Source: a virus
Taxonomy: Duplodnaviria; Caudoviricetes
Length of the DNA stretch: 64,000 bases
IMG/VR virus record: IMGVR_UViG_3300018430_000021
Location: 64,001-128,000 of that record
Reading direction: 5' to 3' (one strand)
How positions within the stretch are numbered: position 1 is the first letter of the stretch; each line of letters opens with the position of its first letter. Shown one piece after another: positions 8,942 through 18,991 of the stretch. The position numbers and the translations under genes were made by a program. Under the pieces are notes generated by a model. The model worked only from the letters and a program-made list of their open reading frames with translations. It was not told where the DNA came from and ran no database searches.

Positions 8942-9307
8942 TTATTTTCCCGGCAACGCATCGATAGCCAGCTCATTCTCCAGCCCGAGCAGACGCTGTA
9001 GCCAACCGTCACCGAATTTGACGATTTCCTGCAGGCGTAAATCTATCCGGCCGGCGTTAATATCGTTGAACGGTATCTGATAAACTCGGGTATCGAACCA
9101 GTCCTTCGCCGGCCCGGTATAGAGGATAAGCACAGCCTTCTGGTCCTGATCCCAGGACGGGCGATAATAACCTGTCCAGTCAACGTCCAGATTATAGACA
9201 ACGCCGGAAAGCTGGAGTCGTTTATTGATCTCGTCCAGCTTCTCGGCTATGTGCGACATAGGATAACCGGCCATAGACTTATCCCAACAGGCTACCGATT
9301 CCGCCAA
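8942..9307 (-). CDS. early hypothetical protein (start uncertain)
   Basis: 121-aa ORF downstream of 9279-9473. Confidence 0.65.
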   Translation of the reverse strand: MAESVACWDKSMAGYPMSHIAEKLDEINKRLQLSGVVYNLDVDWTGYYRPSWDQDQKAVLILYTGPAKDWFDTRVYQIPFNDINAGRIDLRLQEIVKFGDGWLQRLLGLENELAIDALPGK

Positions 9308-11413: not shown

Positions 11414-11788
11414 ATGAAAAAAGAAAATATCATCATCCATGAATGCACGAGCCGTAACGAAATCGAAAACCTTGGTTCTGCAGCAACCATCGAAGGACTC
11501 ACACTCGATTCGATTCCGAAGTATGTGGAACTCATCGAGAAGCTTGGTGGCAAGTTCAAGCAGAAGAGTGACGAGAAACTTACCGTATATGTAACCAGTG
11601 GTTTACAGATGAATAAGTCTTTCCGTCTGAAGGGAAGCAATGCATATCCTGATGACACGCACATCGTGTCCATCAAGCTTGAAGACTTCGACTACGAGAT
11701 GGACTTCTGCATCAACAGACTTCGCTTCGGTATCAGGTGGATGGATGACATTCTCGACAACAACCGCTGGCACAATCGAGGCAAATAG
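11414..11788 (+). CDS. early hypothetical protein
   Basis: Own promoter and RBS. Confidence 0.85.
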   Translation: MKKENIIIHECTSRNEIENLGSAATIEGLTLDSIPKYVELIEKLGGKFKQKSDEKLTVYVTSGLQMNKSFRLKGSNAYPDDTHIVSIKLEDFDYEMDFCINRLRFGIRWMDDILDNNRWHNRGK

Positions 11789-11789
11789 T

Positions 11790-12285
11790 CTCTCGTAGCT
11801 CGACCTCTGGCTCGACGAAGAGGCCTTCCGGGCTACAGTTTCGGTGACGTATACTGTGACGTTTTTACCCCAAAATGTCAGGTATATCGTCGCCTTTTTC
11901 GTCATTATATAGGGCCAGATCTGGTGCCCCCCGGGGGGCCTACGGTGACGCCCCTGGGCGGGAAAACTCGCTGTGTTCAAAAAAAGTATTAAGCTTCCTA
12001 TAGGGCTAGGTACCGGGCCTATCCGGAAAATGTGCCCCTATTGGCCAAAATGTGTGCGTCTCGAGGCGATCCCCTAAAAATTTTTTCCGGAATTTTTTCC
12101 AGGCGGTCCAGACCGTATAGGCTAGTTCCAAAAAATTTTTTCCGGAAATTTTTCCTATAGTCGGGAAACGGCGGGCGAAGTTGCCGTTAAGGTCAAAATC
12201 TATGGTTTTCCCTAAAAAATTCGAATACGTGCCTGTCCAAAAAAATTTTCCGGAAATTTTTTCCTCCCCGGGAAAAATTAAGGGC
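11790..12285. repeat. non-coding junction with palindromes and A/T-tract repeats; candidate genome terminus or packaging site
   Basis: GCCCCCCGGGGGGC palindrome at 11926-11939; three AAAAATTTT(TT)CCGGAA(A)TTTTT(T)CC copies at 12076-12100, 12130-12155, 12239-12264. Confidence 0.6.
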
Positions 12286-12321
12286 TTTACGTATCTAGTG
12301 TATATTGCTATATTGTATTAT

Positions 12322-12714
12322 ATGTCGGATTATTATGATAATTACGAGAATTGTGAGAAATATCTGTTAGAACACGGATATACACGGTATAAGTGTAACG
12401 TGTTGGTTATAGATGCGTTGTTCAGCGTGATGTACCTTAAGGATTCCGACCATATGAAAATAAACCTGCTTTACGGGAAGAGCGGCGAACGGTGTAACAT
12501 GACTTGTTCTGTCAATTACAGCGGGAAGATGGGACCGCAGTTCTGGGAAAGGATCGCGTCTACATATGAGTCTCATGCCCGGGAGCATTTCAGGTTCCGT
12601 GTGGACAACGAGGATTTTCTTAGGCTGGTTGGCGATAACGACTATAATACAGTCGAGATGGCGTTCCGGAGGCACGAGATGGAGAAGTCGTTGGAGGTTC
12701 TGGATGGTGTATAA
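12322..12714 (+). CDS. tandem paralogue family member 1 (start MSDYY)
   Basis: Promoter 12286/12309, ATG 7 nt after the -10; ends EKSLEVLDGV. Confidence 0.85.
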   Translation: MSDYYDNYENCEKYLLEHGYTRYKCNVLVIDALFSVMYLKDSDHMKINLLYGKSGERCNMTCSVNYSGKMGPQFWERIASTYESHAREHFRFRVDNEDFLRLVGDNDYNTVEMAFRRHEMEKSLEVLDGV

Positions 12715-13075
12715 CTGCGTTACGTGCCTGGACATGCTTATAAAGGCCGGATATAACATGGTAGATACGTACCATGTCGGCGAAGACAGTACCAAGCTGC
12801 AGTTCGAGAAGGATAACAGCATTGTGGCCGCGTATACCTATAACGGGAGTTCTAACGGTTCCGTGTGTATTATAATGTATTGTTCGATTTACGGGGAAGG
12901 TTCGTATACGAACGTGGCCTCTACGTACTGTACGGGCGACAGCGCGATATACGAGAACGTAGATACTGGGAAATTTCTGGAAATAGTGTGCAAATATCCT
13001 GCAATAGAATGGATGGAGAGGTTCCACGCTTACGACTTGGAAAGGAAACTGGAGGTTCTGGATGGAGGGATATAG
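12704..13075 (+). CDS. tandem paralogue family member 2 (start MVYNC)
   Basis: GGAGG-N6-ATG lies inside the upstream gene end; ends ERKLEVLDGGI. Confidence 0.85.
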   Translation: MVYNCVTCLDMLIKAGYNMVDTYHVGEDSTKLQFEKDNSIVAAYTYNGSSNGSVCIIMYCSIYGEGSYTNVASTYCTGDSAIYENVDTGKFLEIVCKYPAIEWMERFHAYDLERKLEVLDGGI

Positions 13076-13451
13076 GTCGCCGGATATTATAAAGGGCGAG
13101 TGTTTTCGGAAGCTTGAAACTAACGGTTTCGTAGACACTTACACTTACAGCAAGAGTACTCATCTTACGGGCTGGACGTTCACGAACGAGACATATCCGG
13201 AAAGGGGCTATATCATAGTCTATACCGGGAAGGAAGCCGGGATGAACGGCATAGCGATGGTTTGCGAGATTGGTTCCGGTGAGGACAAGGTGAACGTGGC
13301 GGCCACATACGAAAATCCTTTCAGCATGTACAAGCGGGTTCCGATAGACATATTCCTGGAAACGGTGTGTAAATATCCGACGAACGAATGGATAGAGCGG
13401 TTCCACGCGTACGACGTAAAGAGGACTCTGGAGGTACTGGATGGCGCTTAG
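13062..13451 (+). CDS. tandem paralogue family member 3
   Basis: VAATY; CKYP.EW.ERFHAYD; LEVLDGA. Confidence 0.85.
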   Translation: MEGYRSPDIIKGECFRKLETNGFVDTYTYSKSTHLTGWTFTNETYPERGYIIVYTGKEAGMNGIAMVCEIGSGEDKVNVAATYENPFSMYKRVPIDIFLETVCKYPTNEWIERFHAYDVKRTLEVLDGA

Positions 13452-13797
13452 TTACGAAATGGCGGAAAACATGCTATTAGGTAGCGGTTTCAAGGTTACG
13501 ACCGAGGCGCTCTGTACCAACGGCTGCGAGCTTATCATGTTCGGTAAAGAAAATACGGAAATTGAATGCTATAAGGGCGGTCAGCTCAATAAGGAGCTTC
13601 TGTTGATGTGTTCAATCTGGGACAAAAAGTCTTTGGCAAAGACACACGTGGCGGCGACGTTTACCAGCAGGTCGTGCATGTTCGTGCGTGTTTGCGAGGA
13701 AACATTCATGGATATAGTGTGTAGACATCCTGAGACGGAATGGATGACGCTGTTTAACGAGTATGACGTAAAGAAGACACTGGAGGTTCTTTCCTGA
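13441..13797 (+). CDS. tandem paralogue family member 4
   Basis: VAATF; EYDVKKTLEVLS. Confidence 0.85.
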   Translation: MALSYEMAENMLLGSGFKVTTEALCTNGCELIMFGKENTEIECYKGGQLNKELLLMCSIWDKKSLAKTHVAATFTSRSCMFVRVCEETFMDIVCRHPETEWMTLFNEYDVKKTLEVLS

Positions 13798-14165
13798 TGG
13801 AACGTACTTTCGATTTTTGCAGCGAGATGCTGACATCCGGCGGTTTCGCGAGGCGGACTGACGGGGAATACGACCTGAGCGTTAGCATGAGGCTTATACA
13901 GTTCGAAAAGAAGGATATTATCATAAACTGTTACAAAGGCCCTCGAGATATATGCGACATGGGATGTTTCATTCGTACTCCCGGTACGGACGACTGGGAA
14001 CTTCTGGCGGCCACTTATTGTCCTGATGTTCAGAAGTTTACGTACGGCGGTGTCGACACTGACGATTTCCTGTCGATCATATGCGAAAACAGGGTTGACG
14101 AACTGCGGCAAAAATTCTATAATTACGATATTGAGAAAAAGCTTGAGGTCTTGAATGGAATTTAG
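13797..14165 (+). CDS. tandem paralogue family member 5
   Basis: LAATY; YDIEKKLEVLNGI. Confidence 0.85.
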   Translation: MERTFDFCSEMLTSGGFARRTDGEYDLSVSMRLIQFEKKDIIINCYKGPRDICDMGCFIRTPGTDDWELLAATYCPDVQKFTYGGVDTDDFLSIICENRVDELRQKFYNYDIEKKLEVLNGI

Positions 14166-14535
14166 GCGCTGTAAGGAGATGATTATTGATGCCGGGTTTG
14201 AACCCAACTGGATTGGTTCCCTGAACGAGGAAACGACTATCCATGCGTTCTATAACGACTTTTTCTATCTCCAGGTATATTCGGACCGCCGCGAGACCGT
14301 AGTCCAGGGCATAGACTTGCATAAGTTCGATATTCCGGGTAACAGGAGATCGAAGACTTCCGCGGTCTGTACTACCTACAAGAATTTCGAGGGCGATATT
14401 CTGTTCAAGGGATTACACCAGAACATTGCCGGTGTCGTCAGGATTATATGCAACAACGCTGACCATCCCGAACGTATCAACTTGAAATTACAGGAATTTG
14501 TGGCGGACATGGTTTTGAGGCCGTTGGAAGGTTAA
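14155..14535 (+). CDS. tandem paralogue family member 6
   Basis: C.EMIIDAGF; CTTY; IIC; LRPLEG. Confidence 0.8.
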   Translation: MEFRRCKEMIIDAGFEPNWIGSLNEETTIHAFYNDFFYLQVYSDRRETVVQGIDLHKFDIPGNRRSKTSAVCTTYKNFEGDILFKGLHQNIAGVVRIICNNADHPERINLKLQEFVADMVLRPLEG

Positions 14536-14536
14536 T

Positions 14537-14941
14537 ATGAATATAGACGATCTTATCGAGAAGTTTGAACATTCGCTTACTCCGGAAGACGGAGAGAAGT
14601 ATACGGCTCGGCAGATTATCGCCAAACTGGGCGAGCATGGCTGGAAGAACGATATTAATGAATGTACGAACAACAAGCACGTGTTTTTAAAAGACAAGTA
14701 TCATTTTTTAATTACGCACACGAATATTAAGGAATACGATGACGGTTATCCGCTTATCAAGCTGTATAGTAACGACGTCCTTCTTACATCTTCCGGAACT
14801 GACATATTCGAGGAATTTAAAGGCGTATTTCCTGAAATTAACCCGACAGCGCTTACGAAATTGATTGAGAAAGATACGGATATTTACAACGAACTGAACG
14901 AGTACTTCGTAAATAAGGCTTTGAAAAATTTGGAAGGATAG
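14537..14941 (+). CDS. tandem paralogue family member 7
   Basis: LGEHGW; EYFVNKALKNLEG. Confidence 0.8.
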   Translation: MNIDDLIEKFEHSLTPEDGEKYTARQIIAKLGEHGWKNDINECTNNKHVFLKDKYHFLITHTNIKEYDDGYPLIKLYSNDVLLTSSGTDIFEEFKGVFPEINPTALTKLIEKDTDIYNELNEYFVNKALKNLEG

Positions 14942-14942
14942 G

Positions 14943-15320
14943 ATGAGCTATACTGCTTTACAGATGTTTGATAAGCTTGAAAAGGCCGGGTATCATTGTT
15001 GTCACTGGTCCAATATCAAGCACGGTTATAGGAAAGGTGATTACTTGGTTGTCGTCATGCATGCCAGTTTATGGGGTGATAATCCAGGCGATGACAAATT
15101 TCCGCATGTCGAGATATATCGTAACGATACGCTTATCTGTGCATCGTATATTATCAAGAACCATAATTGGAGTAAGGCCATGATTCCTGTCGTACTTACG
15201 CCGGATGAGCTTTTGAATATAGCGGTAAATTTCAGCGATAACATATTTAATATCATTATGGAAAGGTATGTTGACATGACTTTGGAGAAACTCGATGAAA
15301 AACCGCAAGTTAAGTCATAA
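14943..15320 (+). CDS. tandem paralogue family member 8
   Basis: LEKAGY; HGYRKG; TLEKLD. Confidence 0.8.
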   Translation: MSYTALQMFDKLEKAGYHCCHWSNIKHGYRKGDYLVVVMHASLWGDNPGDDKFPHVEIYRNDTLICASYIIKNHNWSKAMIPVVLTPDELLNIAVNFSDNIFNIIMERYVDMTLEKLDEKPQVKS

Positions 15321-15666
15321 TTATGTTATTGAACGTATGCGTGGTACCGGTTATCGTATGACTTCGGATGAAACCGATGACGGTCTGGCAATGAAGTTCA
15401 CTACGTTTAAACGTAACAATCTTGAGCTTATTATACATTATGATTATTACAGCAGTATCGTAAAATCCATAAATGTCGACAAGCCGCCTAATACCAGTTC
15501 GCATTACCTGATAGCGACGACAACTCATGGGATATACGAATACGAGAATTGTGTCGAGATGAGTATTGACGAACTTTTCGATTATATTATAAGCTGTAAG
15601 ACGACTGAAGAACTGGAAATGAGAATTGAAATGCATGGTATGAAACAGGCACTGGAGTTGTTGTAA
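15295..15666 (+). CDS. tandem paralogue family member 9
   Basis: GTGY; IATT; QALELL. Confidence 0.8.
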   Translation: MKNRKLSHNYVIERMRGTGYRMTSDETDDGLAMKFTTFKRNNLELIIHYDYYSSIVKSINVDKPPNTSSHYLIATTTHGIYEYENCVEMSIDELFDYIISCKTTEELEMRIEMHGMKQALELL

Positions 15667-16073
15667 TGGCTAATGGTCCAATATATCCGGAAAAGATGAA
15701 GTATTACATGAATAAACTCGAAAAAGCGGGTTATGAATATCGTCATGACCGTGATATTACAAGTGATGATGGACTTGTGATAACCGTTACTTATACAAGA
15801 AGTGATACCAACGACTTCTCTGAAATTATAATACATGTATATTATACTCGTAAAGTTAATAGATGTTATCTGACATGTAGTTTGCGTAATCCGCAAACCA
15901 ATATATGGCATTCCGCCTGTTCATTCGATGATGACCGAAATGCTTATCGTTTTAACGGTTTACATACAAGTACGCTTACCCGTATTCTATGTAACGGTAA
16001 AAATAATGACCAGATATTGATGGAATTGAATAAGGTTGAACTGAAGAGCGCCTTGGAGAAACTCGATGGATAA
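15666..16073 (+). CDS. tandem paralogue family member 10
   Basis: LEKAGY; ILC; ALEKLDG. Confidence 0.8.
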   Translation: MANGPIYPEKMKYYMNKLEKAGYEYRHDRDITSDDGLVITVTYTRSDTNDFSEIIIHVYYTRKVNRCYLTCSLRNPQTNIWHSACSFDDDRNAYRFNGLHTSTLTRILCNGKNNDQILMELNKVELKSALEKLDG

Positions 16074-16434
16074 GAAAAAACAAAGATCCGTTAATTATTA
16101 TATGGTCCATCTTACAAATGCTGGTTTTGAAGAAGACTCAAACGATTACGGTACGGCGGCTTTTAGTTTCCGTAAGTTTTATAAACCTGGATATGAAGTA
16201 TGGGTATTGAAAGATTATACAAACCAGCATCTTAATATATGTTGTGTAAAATGCGAGCGTGGTAAAGTACCAGAAATAAATATTGCTTGTACATATAAAA
16301 ATTCTACATTTATGGTAGAAAAAGCGGATTTGAATTCTTTATTTAAAATTATTTGTAAGCATGAACCGGAAACTTGGATAAAGATTTTTGCAGAATATAA
16401 TACAAACCGTATTTTAGGAGTTCTTGATGGATAA
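16066..16434 (+). CDS. tandem paralogue family member 11
   Basis: LTNAGF; IACTY; IICKH; ILGVLDG. Confidence 0.8.
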   Translation: MDKKKQRSVNYYMVHLTNAGFEEDSNDYGTAAFSFRKFYKPGYEVWVLKDYTNQHLNICCVKCERGKVPEINIACTYKNSTFMVEKADLNSLFKIICKHEPETWIKIFAEYNTNRILGVLDG

Positions 16435-16791
16435 GCTTTTTCCGGAATGTAACCATTTGCTTATTGAAGCTGGATATGCTTATAATGGTTTGATGTGTGC
16501 TTGGGGTGATGTTAAGATACATGGATATAAAAAGGAAATCTTTATGTATCTATCAGTTTATTTGGCGAAGATATAAAGGATCTTGATATTACTTGTCATA
16601 TTGGTACAACAATGGTTGCTACGTCTTATACTAAAGATTCATTGTGTAACAACGATGCATTATTTTATTCAAATTTTTTAGAAATATTTGATATGGTTCT
16701 TCATCATGATGAAACCGATATTGTAAAGGCTTTTAGTGAGAAAGAATTAAATAAGACCTTGGAGGTTTTAGATGGCAATGATAACGCTTAA
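16427..16791 (+). pseudogene. tandem paralogue family member 12, frameshifted at the A5 run 16529-16533
   Basis: MDKLFPECNHLLIEAGY..HGYK, then the -1 frame continues KGNLYVSI..VATSY..ELNKTLEVLDGNDNA*. Confidence 0.85.
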
Positions 16792-17131
16792 ACATTGTTA
16801 TAAGAAATTGCTTCATTACGGATTTAAATGTATAGAACATACTAAAGGTGCACACGAATGGGCTAAATTCGCAAAAGATGATATGACTATACACGTCTAT
16901 AATGATTATACAGAACAAACTAAAGTTTTCAGTATGTTATGTTTAATAAACGGTGAAAAGATTGCGCATACTCTTGGAAACGGTAATCATGCATCTTATG
17001 ACACAAGATATATGTTCAGTGGTTTTGAACATGAACAATTTTTAAATATAGTCTGCATCGGAAAAAGTAACGAAGTTTTAGAAACATTCCGAAAAATCGA
17101 TGTTGAACGAACGCTTAAGTTGTTACCTTAA
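16772..17131 (+). CDS. tandem paralogue family member 13
   Basis: CYKKLLHYGF; FLNIVC; DVERTLKLLP. Confidence 0.8.
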   Translation: MAMITLKHCYKKLLHYGFKCIEHTKGAHEWAKFAKDDMTIHVYNDYTEQTKVFSMLCLINGEKIAHTLGNGNHASYDTRYMFSGFEHEQFLNIVCIGKSNEVLETFRKIDVERTLKLLP

Positions 17132-17169
17132 GGGTTTACAGTTTTATATTTTTTAATTATATTGTGATT

Positions 17170-17517
17170 ATGAAATACAAGAAATGCCGACAGATGTTAC
17201 TTGATGCTGGTTATTATGAGGTTAACTGGGCTGATCTTTATGTATGTCGTTTTCGAAAAGACCGTTATAAGGTAGTTGTATCACAAAATGAATCCGGTAA
17301 CGTAACACGTATTATTTGTTTTGATGAAAAAAATAAACTTGGTAAAGAAGGAAGACTTATTGACACAAAAACCGAAAAAGAACATAAAGACGGTATTTTC
17401 TTTCTAATTCACGGCATTTCAATGCAAGATACTTTGGATATGGTGTGCGGGGATCTTAATCGTCTTGAAGCAAAAATGAATAATTATCTTACATTGGAAG
17501 CCATAGAGAAACTATAA
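17170..17517 (+). CDS. tandem paralogue family member 14 (start MKYKK)
   Basis: Internal promoter 17135/17158, ATG 6 nt after the -10; CRQMLLDAGY; AIEKL. Confidence 0.8.
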   Translation: MKYKKCRQMLLDAGYYEVNWADLYVCRFRKDRYKVVVSQNESGNVTRIICFDEKNKLGKEGRLIDTKTEKEHKDGIFFLIHGISMQDTLDMVCGDLNRLEAKMNNYLTLEAIEKL

Positions 17518-17858
17518 TGCGACTCGAATATGTAAAAAACGTACTTGACAATAACGGTTATCATATCGACGATAAGTCGGGTTGGACTGTCGATGCTTCT
17601 CGAGGTAACATTAAAATCTATGCTACCTGTCCTTATGATAATATTGGAAATGTACAGCTTATAACCATTTATATTGATGATACGCGAGCTATTTCCAGTG
17701 TAAGCACGTATTATACAGATATTCCTAAAATGTTTAAGTATAATAATTTTGAACTTAACGAAATTATTGCCCTTATTGAAAACAGTAGAAATTCAGGCGA
17801 TTTACTTAAATATGCCGGTGAATGGACTACGGAGAAAATCTTAAATGTATTACAGTGA
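17517..17858 (+). CDS. tandem paralogue family member 15
   Basis: VLDNNGY; EWTTEKILNVLQ. Confidence 0.8.
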   Translation: MRLEYVKNVLDNNGYHIDDKSGWTVDASRGNIKIYATCPYDNIGNVQLITIYIDDTRAISSVSTYYTDIPKMFKYNNFELNEIIALIENSRNSGDLLKYAGEWTTEKILNVLQ

Positions 17859-18228
17859 AGATGACTATGGTTTAGGATGCGAAGCAAATGATGTATTAAA
17901 CCGGCTTATACGGGCCGGTTATCGATTTAATTTTTCCGATGTAAATTCCAGAGACGTTAGGCACATGTATAAAGATGATATAAACGTGTATATATCATTT
18001 CATACTAATAAAGGAAAAAGTTATGTCGATAGTATGCAATGCGTAAAAAATGAAGTAGGAATAGCTACTACATATAAAAAAGCATATGTTAATAGTTTGC
18101 CTATACAATATATGTTTTGCGAAGTTGACCCTATTACATTTATGACAATAGTATGCAATAAGACAAATAAGCTGGTTCAAGAATTCGCTGAATGGAACGC
18201 AGACAAGATATTGTCAAAACTTAAATAG
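17845..18228 (+). CDS. tandem paralogue family member 16
   Basis: LIRAGY; IATTY; FMTIVC; EWNADKILSKLK. Confidence 0.8.
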   Translation: MYYSEDDYGLGCEANDVLNRLIRAGYRFNFSDVNSRDVRHMYKDDINVYISFHTNKGKSYVDSMQCVKNEVGIATTYKKAYVNSLPIQYMFCEVDPITFMTIVCNKTNKLVQEFAEWNADKILSKLK

Positions 18229-18229
18229 C

Positions 18230-18991
18230 TTAATGTTCAATTCCTATTGCTTTGATAAGTTCCTGTGGTACCACCGCAAGGAACTGTTCTTTTTCTACAT
18301 CGGTAAGATTCTTGAAGTCTGTACGGGCGAATCCCTTGAACACAATATCAGCCATGAGATTCTTGGTAATAATATCGAGCTCGCCTGGAGAAACTTTTAA
18401 TGTTTCGACTTCGTTTCTTCCCTTAACAACAGATTCCATTTCATGGAACTTGTAAAGCGTGACCAACTGCATGAGCCAGCAAGGATCATATTCTGCAAAG
18501 AAATCCCAGACAAAGCCCGGAAGAATTTCCGGCCACGGTGATTCACAAAGAAGTTCCACCTGTTCACGCATCATGTTCGGATGAAGAAGACTGTGACTGA
18601 GTTTAATATCCTTCAAATCTTCCTTGGAAAGTTTCTTCTTGAAATTCTTGGTATTGTATTCCATACCCTGAGCGTGACGAACCTTAAACGCTTTCTTTCT
18701 CAAACGGGAGATTGATTTCTGTTTTGCCTTACGCTTGATAGCGGCTTTCTTCTGGCCTTTCTTACGGTTGATTCTTTCTTTGTTTGTAATGAATACTTCT
18801 TTAGGCTGTCCAGACTTTCTGTCAATCTGAACACGGTATTTACCCTTACGAGTAGTAACCCACTTAACGACACGCTTGCCGTTTCGAATAACGAATTTCT
18901 TTTTAAGAGCTTCGTCAAGAACCTGAAGATTTTCTTCGGTTGGTTCTTCCAAGTATTGTGCGTTATTCTGTGTGTATTCTAAGAAGTTCAT
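18230..18991 (-). CDS. basic prohead-core-like (gp68-like) protein
   Basis: Acidic N-terminus ending in LDE, then a K/R-rich block (VIRNGK..NRKKGQKKAAIKRKAK); paralogous to 18994-19326. Confidence 0.5.
   Translation of the reverse strand: MNFLEYTQNNAQYLEEPTEENLQVLDEALKKKFVIRNGKRVVKWVTTRKGKYRVQIDRKSGQPKEVFITNKERINRKKGQKKAAIKRKAKQKSISRLRKKAFKVRHAQGMEYNTKNFKKKLSKEDLKDIKLSHSLLHPNMMREQVELLCESPWPEILPGFVWDFFAEYDPCWLMQLVTLYKFHEMESVVKGRNEVETLKVSPGELDIITKNLMADIVFKGFARTDFKNLTDVEKEQFLAVVPQELIKAIGIEH

Follow-up and report, generated by a model that had tools for sequence, protein, structure and literature searches.

The multigene families (MGF) of African swine fever virus and the host-range families of poxviruses consist of early, tandemly arranged, diverged paralogues, whose number varies between strains and which are thought to diversify the interaction with the host. 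Each gene of these families has its own promoter, and they are not known to have a shared junction that serves as a translation signal. The host-takeover module of Bacillus phage SPO1 is composed of small early genes, densely packed behind many strong host-type promoters; these genes are not known to be mutually paralogous or to have a common junction motif. Amplification of phage anti-defence genes has been described for T4 (dmd-tifA; PMC9391042) and for T6, in which it is driven by SegB (PMC13096335), and genomic accordions are known in poxviruses (Elde et al. 2012, as cited in PMC13359090). Experiments with T4 show that microhomologies of 6-10 bp are enough for the anti-toxin gene tifA to be amplified in tandem (PMC9391042). 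Here we describe an array of tandem paralogous genes found in a stretch of 64,000 nucleotides (nt) of viral DNA (hereafter the window: bases 64001-128000 of the 291-kb IMG/VR virus record IMGVR_UViG_3300018430_000021; array coordinates count from the window start). The codons for the conserved C-terminus of one protein also contain, at nearly all junctions, the Shine-Dalgarno (SD) site of the next gene together with its start codon. The best overall explanation of this locus, to which we assign a probability of roughly 0.6, is a junction-linked array whose units turn over as cassettes and which encodes an early repertoire of binding proteins.

The source is an uncultured T4-related giant phage, with a terminase half approximately 30% identical to T4-type terminases and a gene for a GroEL-like chaperonin; the array lies within its early region. 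The sequencing runs in which the array was found are animal faeces as well as bovine and sheep metagenomes. Listing and translation of the open reading frames (ORFs) revealed, on the + strand at 12322-18228, 16 tandem units of 113-135 codons each, which belong to a single protein family and form two operons (g1-g14 and g15-g17). All 16 matches of the family profile in the whole genome lie inside the array. A first-pass annotation, made from the sequence alone, had reported 16 consecutive related genes and their shared motifs, and the ORF listing, the translations and two alignments (A1 and A2) bear this out. Its count is correct for units, but one of them (unit 12) is a frameshifted pseudogene, and 15 of the 16 are intact (113-135 amino acids, aa). 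The units are:

g1, 12322-12714, + strand: 130 aa; C-terminus SLEVLDGV; opens operon 1.
g2, 12704-13075, + strand: 123 aa; GGAGG, 6 nt and start within the LEVLDG codons of g1.
g3, 13062-13451, + strand: 129 aa; fastest-evolving unit, with a mosaic N-terminal half.
g4, 13441-13797, + strand: 118 aa; precisely missing from the relatives L010 and L015.
g5, 13797-14165, + strand: 122 aa.
g6, 14155-14535, + strand: 126 aa; C-terminus LRPLEG; the SD for g7 is GAAGG.
g7, 14537-14941, + strand: 134 aa; most divergent member, with an additional N-terminal helix.
g8, 14943-15320, + strand: 125 aa; paralogous to g7; 26 nt shared with g9.
g9, 15295-15666, + strand: 123 aa.
g10, 15666-16073, + strand: 135 aa; orthologue of r12.
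g11, 16066-16434, + strand: 122 aa; C-terminus ILGVLDG; an AGGAG SD is written by the Leu-Gly codons.
Unit 12, 16427-16791, + strand: by three-frame translation, one frame at 16427-16576, then the -1 frame to a stop at 16791.
g14, 16772-17131, + strand: 119 aa; closes operon 1; C-terminus TLKLLP, without an SD-like core.
g15, 17170-17517, + strand: 115 aa; opens operon 2; probably leaderless.
g16, 17517-17858, + strand: 113 aa; long branch; weakest SD upstream (GAGA).
g17, 17845-18228, + strand: 127 aa; final unit; C-terminus ILSKLK, without an SD; the next gene is convergent.

At 14 of the 15 junctions the position of the next ATG ranges from 26 nt within the previous gene to 1 nt past its end; the sole exception is g14 to g15, where the downstream gene has its own promoter. 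An SD core is located 4-10 nt before the next ATG, within the L-E-x-L codons, at 13 of these 14 coupled junctions. The helix end [T/K]-L-E-x-L-(D-G) is encoded as NTG GAG G.., which places GGAG(G) at this distance from the start; the cores read GGAGG, GGAG, GAGG, AGGAG or GAAGG, and the g15 to g16 junction has only GAGA. The first-pass annotation had proposed GGAGG-N6-ATG for every boundary. This arrangement is present, inside the preceding LEVLDG codons, at the four starts it named (12704, 13062, 13441 and 16772), whereas other boundaries have different cores and spacers of 4-10 nt. A junction of identical type, 15-20 nt in length, recurs at each unit boundary.

The contribution of codon choice was assessed by keeping the peptide fixed and resampling synonymous codons from the array's own usage in 2000 simulations. 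Such recoding yields SD cores at 4.5 ± 1.4 of the 14 junctions, compared with the 13 observed, a number reached in 0/2000 simulations. The same test performed with the diverged array L009 gave an expectation of 4.6 against 10 of 12 observed (again 0/2000). Glutamate at this site is encoded by GAG in 17 of 19 cases, versus a background of 34% (p = 1e-6), and the preceding leucine codon ends in G in 15 of 17 (41% background; p = 9e-5). Sites with other residues still give a purine core (Arg AGG, Gly GGA, or Lys AAG followed by G). The choice of synonymous codons shows the embedded site to be under selection at the nucleotide level. These codon-level statistics, repeated in L009, support the earlier claim that the C-terminal codons double as the SD and start of the next gene. 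In the operon-terminal units (g14, g17, r13 and the last unit of L021) the leucines are kept, Glu is replaced by Lys, Ser or Asn, and there is no purine core; r13, the L009 orthologue of g14, ends in TLNILKG and has no SD. The leucines, being kept where no gene follows, are therefore a protein-level feature. In our reading, L-x-x-L, perhaps together with the acidic residue, is a helix end maintained at the protein level, on which the SD has been overlaid through codon choice.

The same architecture was found in three further lineages (L009/L011, L021 and L018). In the distant lineage L018 (5984-11762), units of the family alternate with proteins missed by its profile; most of the latter likewise terminate in L-E-x-L and have an embedded SD for the gene that follows. 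The junction design may be older or broader than the family.

The units are not static. Close relatives share 85-92% nucleotide identity with the window across the array. L010 and L015 have no g4, and CTGGAGGTTCTGGATGG of g3 runs directly into g5. In a contig of run X12, position 13048 is joined to 13428, with 379 nt (the g3 period) skipped and 8 letters common at the joint; this run also has unlike sequence after g10, and another contig has a g11-like 3' end directly before g11. An extra unit (P0033) with its own leaderless-type promoter is present in L011 and L012 and absent from L009; another unit of L011/L012 is split in two. Over their final ~90 nt, g2, g3 and g4 have an identity of 76-82%, far above that of the remainder of these genes. 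The absence of g4 or g3 exactly at the junction motif, with the adjoining genes still linked, supports the view, put forward in the first-pass annotation, that a duplicated unit would be expressed automatically.

Orthologues in the L009 and L011 lineage are 30-40% identical to those of the window. A maximum-likelihood tree of 55 units recovered orthologue groups with 95-100% support for g6 (with r8, P0025 and P0027), g7/8, g10, g11, unit 12, g14, g15 and g17. Since these supported groups span lineages, the tree places about ten or more distinct units in the common ancestor. Lineage-specific duplications comprise g2/g3/g4 and g7/g8 in the window lineage and four g1-like units in the L009/L011 lineage, and the unit order differs between lineages. 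On a 165-kb ENA contig there are approximately 15 units, and the three flanking genes after them are those found in the window. Six units are visible in the L021 contig.

The comparison of copy number and of nonsynonymous to synonymous substitution rates (dN/dS) suggested in the first-pass annotation revealed, besides the g3 and g4 losses and the extra L011/L012 unit, dN/dS values against close relatives of 0.04-0.69 for the units and 0-0.35 for the flanking genes. The fastest unit is g3 (0.28-0.69), whose N-terminal half is replaced in relatives. The array had been called accordion-like. Copy number does vary among close relatives, but recent near-identical copies, the other mark of a genomic accordion, are lacking, most paralogues are old and under purifying selection, and the array size remains near 15-16 in the two lineages where it can be counted. 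Since most paralogues predate the lineage split and are under purifying selection, the accordion is real only as gain and loss of units. The phylogeny therefore points to slow birth-and-death of an old repertoire, individually constrained, rather than to recent amplification. In L017 (8526-9284), a contig rich in insertions and deletions, a single 252-aa ORF containing two family domains takes the place of g1 and g2; this is either an in-frame fusion or an assembly error.

Unit 12 is broken by the loss of 1 nt from the run AAAAAGG (16529-16535). In run X22, a relative carries an additional G after 16533 (AAAAAGGG vs AAAAAGG), an intact 120-aa form exists (P0023), and a contig of run X9 (a run not marked as the source), 100% identical over 14698-17702, carries the window version. 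On these grounds the break is a genuine 1-nt deletion that has made unit 12 a pseudogene in this strain. The shift site (16526-16536) reads TAT AAA AAG G, on which a -1 slip of Lys-tRNA on AAG would restore the frame. A programmed -1 frameshift at this slippery-like Lys site is disfavoured, given the additional G in the relative and the existence of the intact gene; low-level ribosomal slippage rescuing the pseudogene is conceivable.

Transcription of the array is likely to depend on two early-type promoters, the first of which is preceded by a repeat-bearing leader:

Leader region, 11790-12285, + strand: about 500 nt without a convincing gene, upstream of the array.
P1, 12286-12314, + strand: early-type promoter; TTTACG, 18 nt, TATATT; the g1 ATG lies 7 nt past the -10 element.
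P2, 17135-17163, + strand: early-type promoter; TTTACA, 18 nt, TATATT; the g15 ATG (17170) lies 6 nt past the -10 element.

Both had been noticed in the first-pass annotation, and both fit a consensus (GTTTAC-N18-TATATT) present in 21 copies in the window and 71 in the genome, of which 52 lie at genome 20-80 kb. The distance from the -10 element to the ATG is bimodal: it is 4-7 nt for 12 promoters (exactly 6 nt for nine of them) and 19-28 nt, with an AAGAGGT-type site, for approximately 33. Both g1 (7 nt) and g15 (6 nt) fall in the short-spacing class and have no SD. P1 is near-identical, with equal spacing, in L010, L015, L016 and L017, and a short distance from the -10 element to the start is also seen in r14 of L009 (TATATT, 7 nt, ATG), in the extra unit of L011/L012 and in the L018 array. 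Judging from this spacing, g1 and g15 are probably leaderless, and there appears to be a distinct class of leaderless early genes in this phage. In phiKZ leaderless transcripts were not found (PMC8244752). The start of g15 is most likely the ATG at 17170 rather than the GTG at 17164. In the case of g1, a longer upstream ORF (from 12202) can be drawn; its frame would be shifted by the 1-nt insertion that run X12 has at 12256, which speaks against a coding role for the extension.

No copy of the T4-type late motif TATAAATA lies on the + strand within the array or ahead of it; such copies are concentrated at genome 80-180 kb. This disfavours the idea that the units are virion or late proteins. 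No terminator-like site was detected on the + strand inside the array. The strongest generic sigma-70 match of the region (14095-14123; TTGACG, 17 nt, TATAAT, 11/12) lies in the 3' end of g5, upstream of g6; it departs from the phage's own consensus and could be an internal promoter or a chance match. The leader contains three copies of a ~37-nt repeat (12064-12100, 12119-12155 and 12227-12263) around the palindrome AAAATTTTCCGGAAATTTT, and TTTCCGGAAA has no copy elsewhere in the 291-kb genome. In L015 and L017 the matching upstream stretch has four copies of TTCCGGAA, three of them about 55 nt apart. A search of Rfam over 11500-18500 gave no match. The leader repeats may form a regulator-binding region for P1.

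The proteins share an N-terminal L...G[YF], a central C....A.T[YF], an [FL]..I.C and a C-terminal F........LE.L(DG) (alignments A1 and A2), with an identity between paralogues of the array of 9-37%. In leave-one-out searches with hidden Markov models (HMMs), all 15 intact members scored 18-76 bits, compared with at most 12 bits for 200 shuffles each. When the last 15 residues were trimmed from every sequence, 13 units still clearly exceeded their own shuffles, g8 was marginal, and so was g7 (19.9 bits at full length). The similarity is therefore not restricted to the last six codons; such a restriction would, by the first-pass annotation's own account, have refuted it.

That annotation did not recognise the family, and our searches agree. 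Ten units taken singly and the 43 members of A2 gave no family common to even two members in Pfam-A, PHROGs v4 or NCBIfam 20, the sole matches to curated families being isolated, single-member ones with E of 0.002 or weaker. A sequence profile search of the PDB gave no significant match (best E 0.13), and the best score in the ESM Atlas (0.83) is inside its stated chance range. Among 50,697 phage records, megablast with the array found no match and tblastn with g2 only a single, unusable one (E = 0.6), while scans of IMG/VR with g10 and with a neighbouring 402-aa protein (own record excluded) gave no relatives. When 1.84 billion cluster representatives were searched exhaustively by profile, 44 matched, all of about 100-170 aa; every one of the subset that was traced is in a phage-like metagenome contig from animal gut samples. 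By these searches, this is an orphan protein family confined to a lineage of giant phages from the guts of ruminants and other animals.

Three candidate extra members at genome 273156-273467, 227339-227728 and 248635-249009 (all on the - strand; HMM E 1e-4 to 6e-3) were excluded, with hhalign probabilities of at most 6%. The first of them is a 103-aa singleton with a family-like N-terminal half (HMM E = 1e-4 without the tail, hhalign 6%), which ends in MLDKVL. Other early proteins with an [LI]-[ED]-x-L ending are encoded at genome 22000-59000, upstream of the window, and at 8942-9274 of the window (- strand); none is detectably related to the array, and their status as distant members is unsupported (HMM E > 1, hhalign probability at most 5%). 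The genome also contains a second, smaller paralogue cluster of five adjoining genes (genome 259278-263795, - strand; BLASTP E < 1e-5). Within the array itself the third-position GC content falls from ~0.55-0.63 (g1-g6) through 0.42-0.49 (g7-g9) to 0.21-0.31 (g10-g17), a gradient that may indicate a mosaic origin or codon usage moving from host-like to phage-tRNA-like.

AlphaFold2 produced confident models, as the first-pass annotation had called for. The model of g2 (m601b47e8908f) has a predicted local distance difference test score (pLDDT) of 90.5 and a predicted template modelling score (pTM) of 0.84; that of g7 (m205a8d35c1c0; pLDDT 85.7) retains the family topology, the agreement being qualified by the shared family alignment on which it was built. 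Both have a helix at the N-terminus, then an antiparallel sheet (five-stranded in g2), and a pair of helices at the C-terminus. Foldseek found no match to either in the PDB or BFVD at E <= 0.001. With VIA-align against 48,161 chains the top hit was Mediator Med17C (Z 6.1 for g2 and 5.3 for g7), below the stated noise level of 7-8. Invariant or near-invariant residues are limited to Met1, Gly16, Leu116 and Leu119, and A2 contains no conserved residue of catalytic type; the most variable parts are strand beta1 and the loops beta1-beta2 and beta3-beta4. The proteins have no hydrophobic segment and a pI of 4.4-8.3. More tentatively, this pattern points to soluble binding modules, non-enzymatic in nature and built on one shared alpha/beta scaffold whose strands and loops vary.

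On the basis of these data we propose the following course of events. A host-polymerase-type early promoter would head each operon, and transcription would start on or beside the first ATG, giving a leaderless first gene. Ribosomes would then bind the embedded sites, with upstream ribosomes opening the mRNA, so that all units would be made early. Recombination between junctions may lead to the gain, loss and reordering of units, like the microhomology-driven tandem amplification of T4. The units themselves might act as early host-takeover or anti-defence inhibitors, with one target each. A repertoire of such binders fits the early position, the small, soluble, non-enzymatic scaffold, the diversification of strands and loops, the turnover of units and the restriction to one lineage, and we give this assignment of function a little short of an even chance. 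The fuller version, in which the junction works as an inbuilt system of cassettes (resembling an integron cassette array, but integrase-free) for counter-defence or takeover binders on an undescribed fold, is more tentative, possible rather than probable.

Several observations weigh against the junction-linked, cassette-based binder repertoire. In searches of Pfam, PHROGs, NCBIfam and the PDB, the units resembled no characterised protein of anti-defence, immunity or takeover. In relatives, most of the array is spanned by contigs from the RNA libraries of two studies, a point in favour of this explanation, but these could come from carried-over DNA and were not counted as proof of transcription. 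Approximately 15 other early proteins (genome 22-59 kb) end in A-I-[ED]-x-L, mostly without an overlapping downstream gene, and over the whole genome an ending of this type shows no link to overlapping starts (odds ratio 1.4, p = 0.30); for this reason, part of the Glu/Asp preference may be protein-level. Gene-wide dN/dS is below 1 in all units, with no sign of an arms race at this resolution, and the size of the array is steady (~15-16) in the two lineages with sufficient sequence, unlike that of a classical accordion. Finally, overlaps of -11, -14, -20 and -26 nt exceed the range of efficient termination-reinitiation (PMC12548453), so ordinary SD-led initiation may explain the apparent coupling. 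What we expect from the sequence is SD-led initiation aided by upstream ribosomes, not strict reinitiation.

A sub-case of the anti-defence idea is that the array is a battery of antitoxin- or immunity-like proteins directed against host abortive-infection or competitor toxins, comparable to bacterial arrays of orphan immunity genes. In its favour, the units encode small, soluble and diversified early proteins, and TifA of T4 is a small early inhibitor of ToxN whose gene amplifies in tandem (PMC9391042). Among the best structural neighbours of both models are the TriTu immunity protein, with Z 5.4 and 4.1, a further immunity protein of the polymorphic-toxin kind, with Z 3.5, and toxins of the HicA type, with Z 4.1-4.9 across 56-62 residues. 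Nevertheless, all of these values are below the noise level, and unrelated proteins (Med17C, coronavirus SUD-C) reach equal or higher values. Immunity and antitoxin families gave no sequence match, and as regards HicA itself, the 43 members have no Pfam match and A2 has no invariant or near-invariant His. We consider this specific assignment unlikely.

It may also be argued that the conserved L-E-x-L is purely a feature of the protein, i.e. a helix end or a tag for a common partner, and that the SD is an unselected by-product. The C-terminal helix is indeed built into the fold and modelled with confidence, both leucines are kept in units without a downstream gene, and the early proteins ending in A-I-[ED]-x-L are mostly followed by an intergenic promoter. 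With the peptide held constant, however, synonymous recoding yields an SD at only about one third of the junctions; GAG and G-ending Leu codons are over-used precisely here, non-Glu residues still give a purine core, and the terminal units have neither Glu nor the core. We regard an SD arising without selection as improbable.

Overlapping co-directional gene pairs often encode subunits of one complex (Huber et al. 2023, as cited in PMC12548453), and the units share one fold in arrays of ~15-16 in two lineages; the paralogues could thus be subunits of a single hetero-oligomer, with gene linkage fixing their proportions. This is quite improbable in view of the variation in copy number: g3 or g4 is missing in close relatives, unit 12 is a pseudogene here and intact elsewhere, duplications and unit order differ by lineage, and the L021 contig has only six units, none of which an obligate complex should tolerate. 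Functionless selfish cassettes, kept only through copying at a recombinogenic junction, would account for unit-precise gain and loss, the pseudogenised units here and in L011 and the lack of a known function, but are highly improbable because of purifying selection (dN/dS as above in all compared units), orthologues retained across lineages at 30-40% identity with 95-100% support, and a conserved fold with high-confidence models.

The significance of the junction-linked array lies in the fact that one short sequence ends a helix, supplies the next gene with its ribosome-binding site and start, and provides the homology for exchange of whole units. Since a single junction sequence serves all three roles, a gained or lost unit leaves a working operon. 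This offers a concrete route for the growth and turnover of small early gene repertoires in large phages, which are otherwise poorly understood. If the cassette reading is true, gut giant phages can add, drop and reorder early effector genes with every unit still expressed. A lineage-restricted family with a confident predicted fold is also a tractable set of candidates for anti-defence and host-takeover screens, and the codon-level test, which separates protein- from RNA-level constraint in overlapping genes, can be reused elsewhere. The protein family is new; the phenomena are a variant of known overlapping, SD-bearing junctions and of the tandem gene-family turnover of large viruses.

At the level of the protein, the helix-sheet-helix core superposes weakly, at noise level, on TriTu and on the alpha-beta-beta-beta-alpha fold (similar to the double-stranded RNA-binding domain) of HicA-type proteins (Z 4.1-5.4, 56-77 residues). 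Unlike HicA, the array proteins are twice the size, with five strands, two C-terminal helices and no conserved catalytic His. The early cluster of SPO1 resembles the region described here in its small early genes and many host-type promoters (here 52 of the 71 motifs at 20-80 kb), but the array genes, unlike those of SPO1, are paralogues sharing a junction motif. With the multigene families of large eukaryotic DNA viruses the array shares tandem diverged paralogues whose number varies between strains. Its proteins are unrelated to theirs, and only the array is known to have a shared junction that acts as a translation signal.

The amplifications of T4 and T6 and the poxvirus accordions are similar in that tandem copy number changes at short homologies and varies among close relatives, and the array too belongs to a T4-type phage. 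In those systems the copies are recent and near-identical, arise under acute selection and later collapse, whereas the copies of the array are diverged, old and individually maintained by purifying selection; the amplified genes counter defence, a role which for the array is putative. A limited literature search found no published description of a repeated junction that combines a helix end, a translation signal and a recombination joint. The closest parallel to the junction itself is provided by translationally coupled overlapping genes (PMC12548453), in which the downstream start is in or beside the upstream stop and the SD is in the last upstream codons; the classical overlaps of -1, -4 and -8 nt occur in the array, in L009 and in L021. 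The array differs from such genes in that many of its overlaps (-11 to -26 nt) are past the range of efficient reinitiation, and in that its SD and start lie in a conserved peptide motif at each boundary of a 16-member array of paralogues. Because this motif recurs at each boundary, the junction is at the same time a repeated substrate for recombination.

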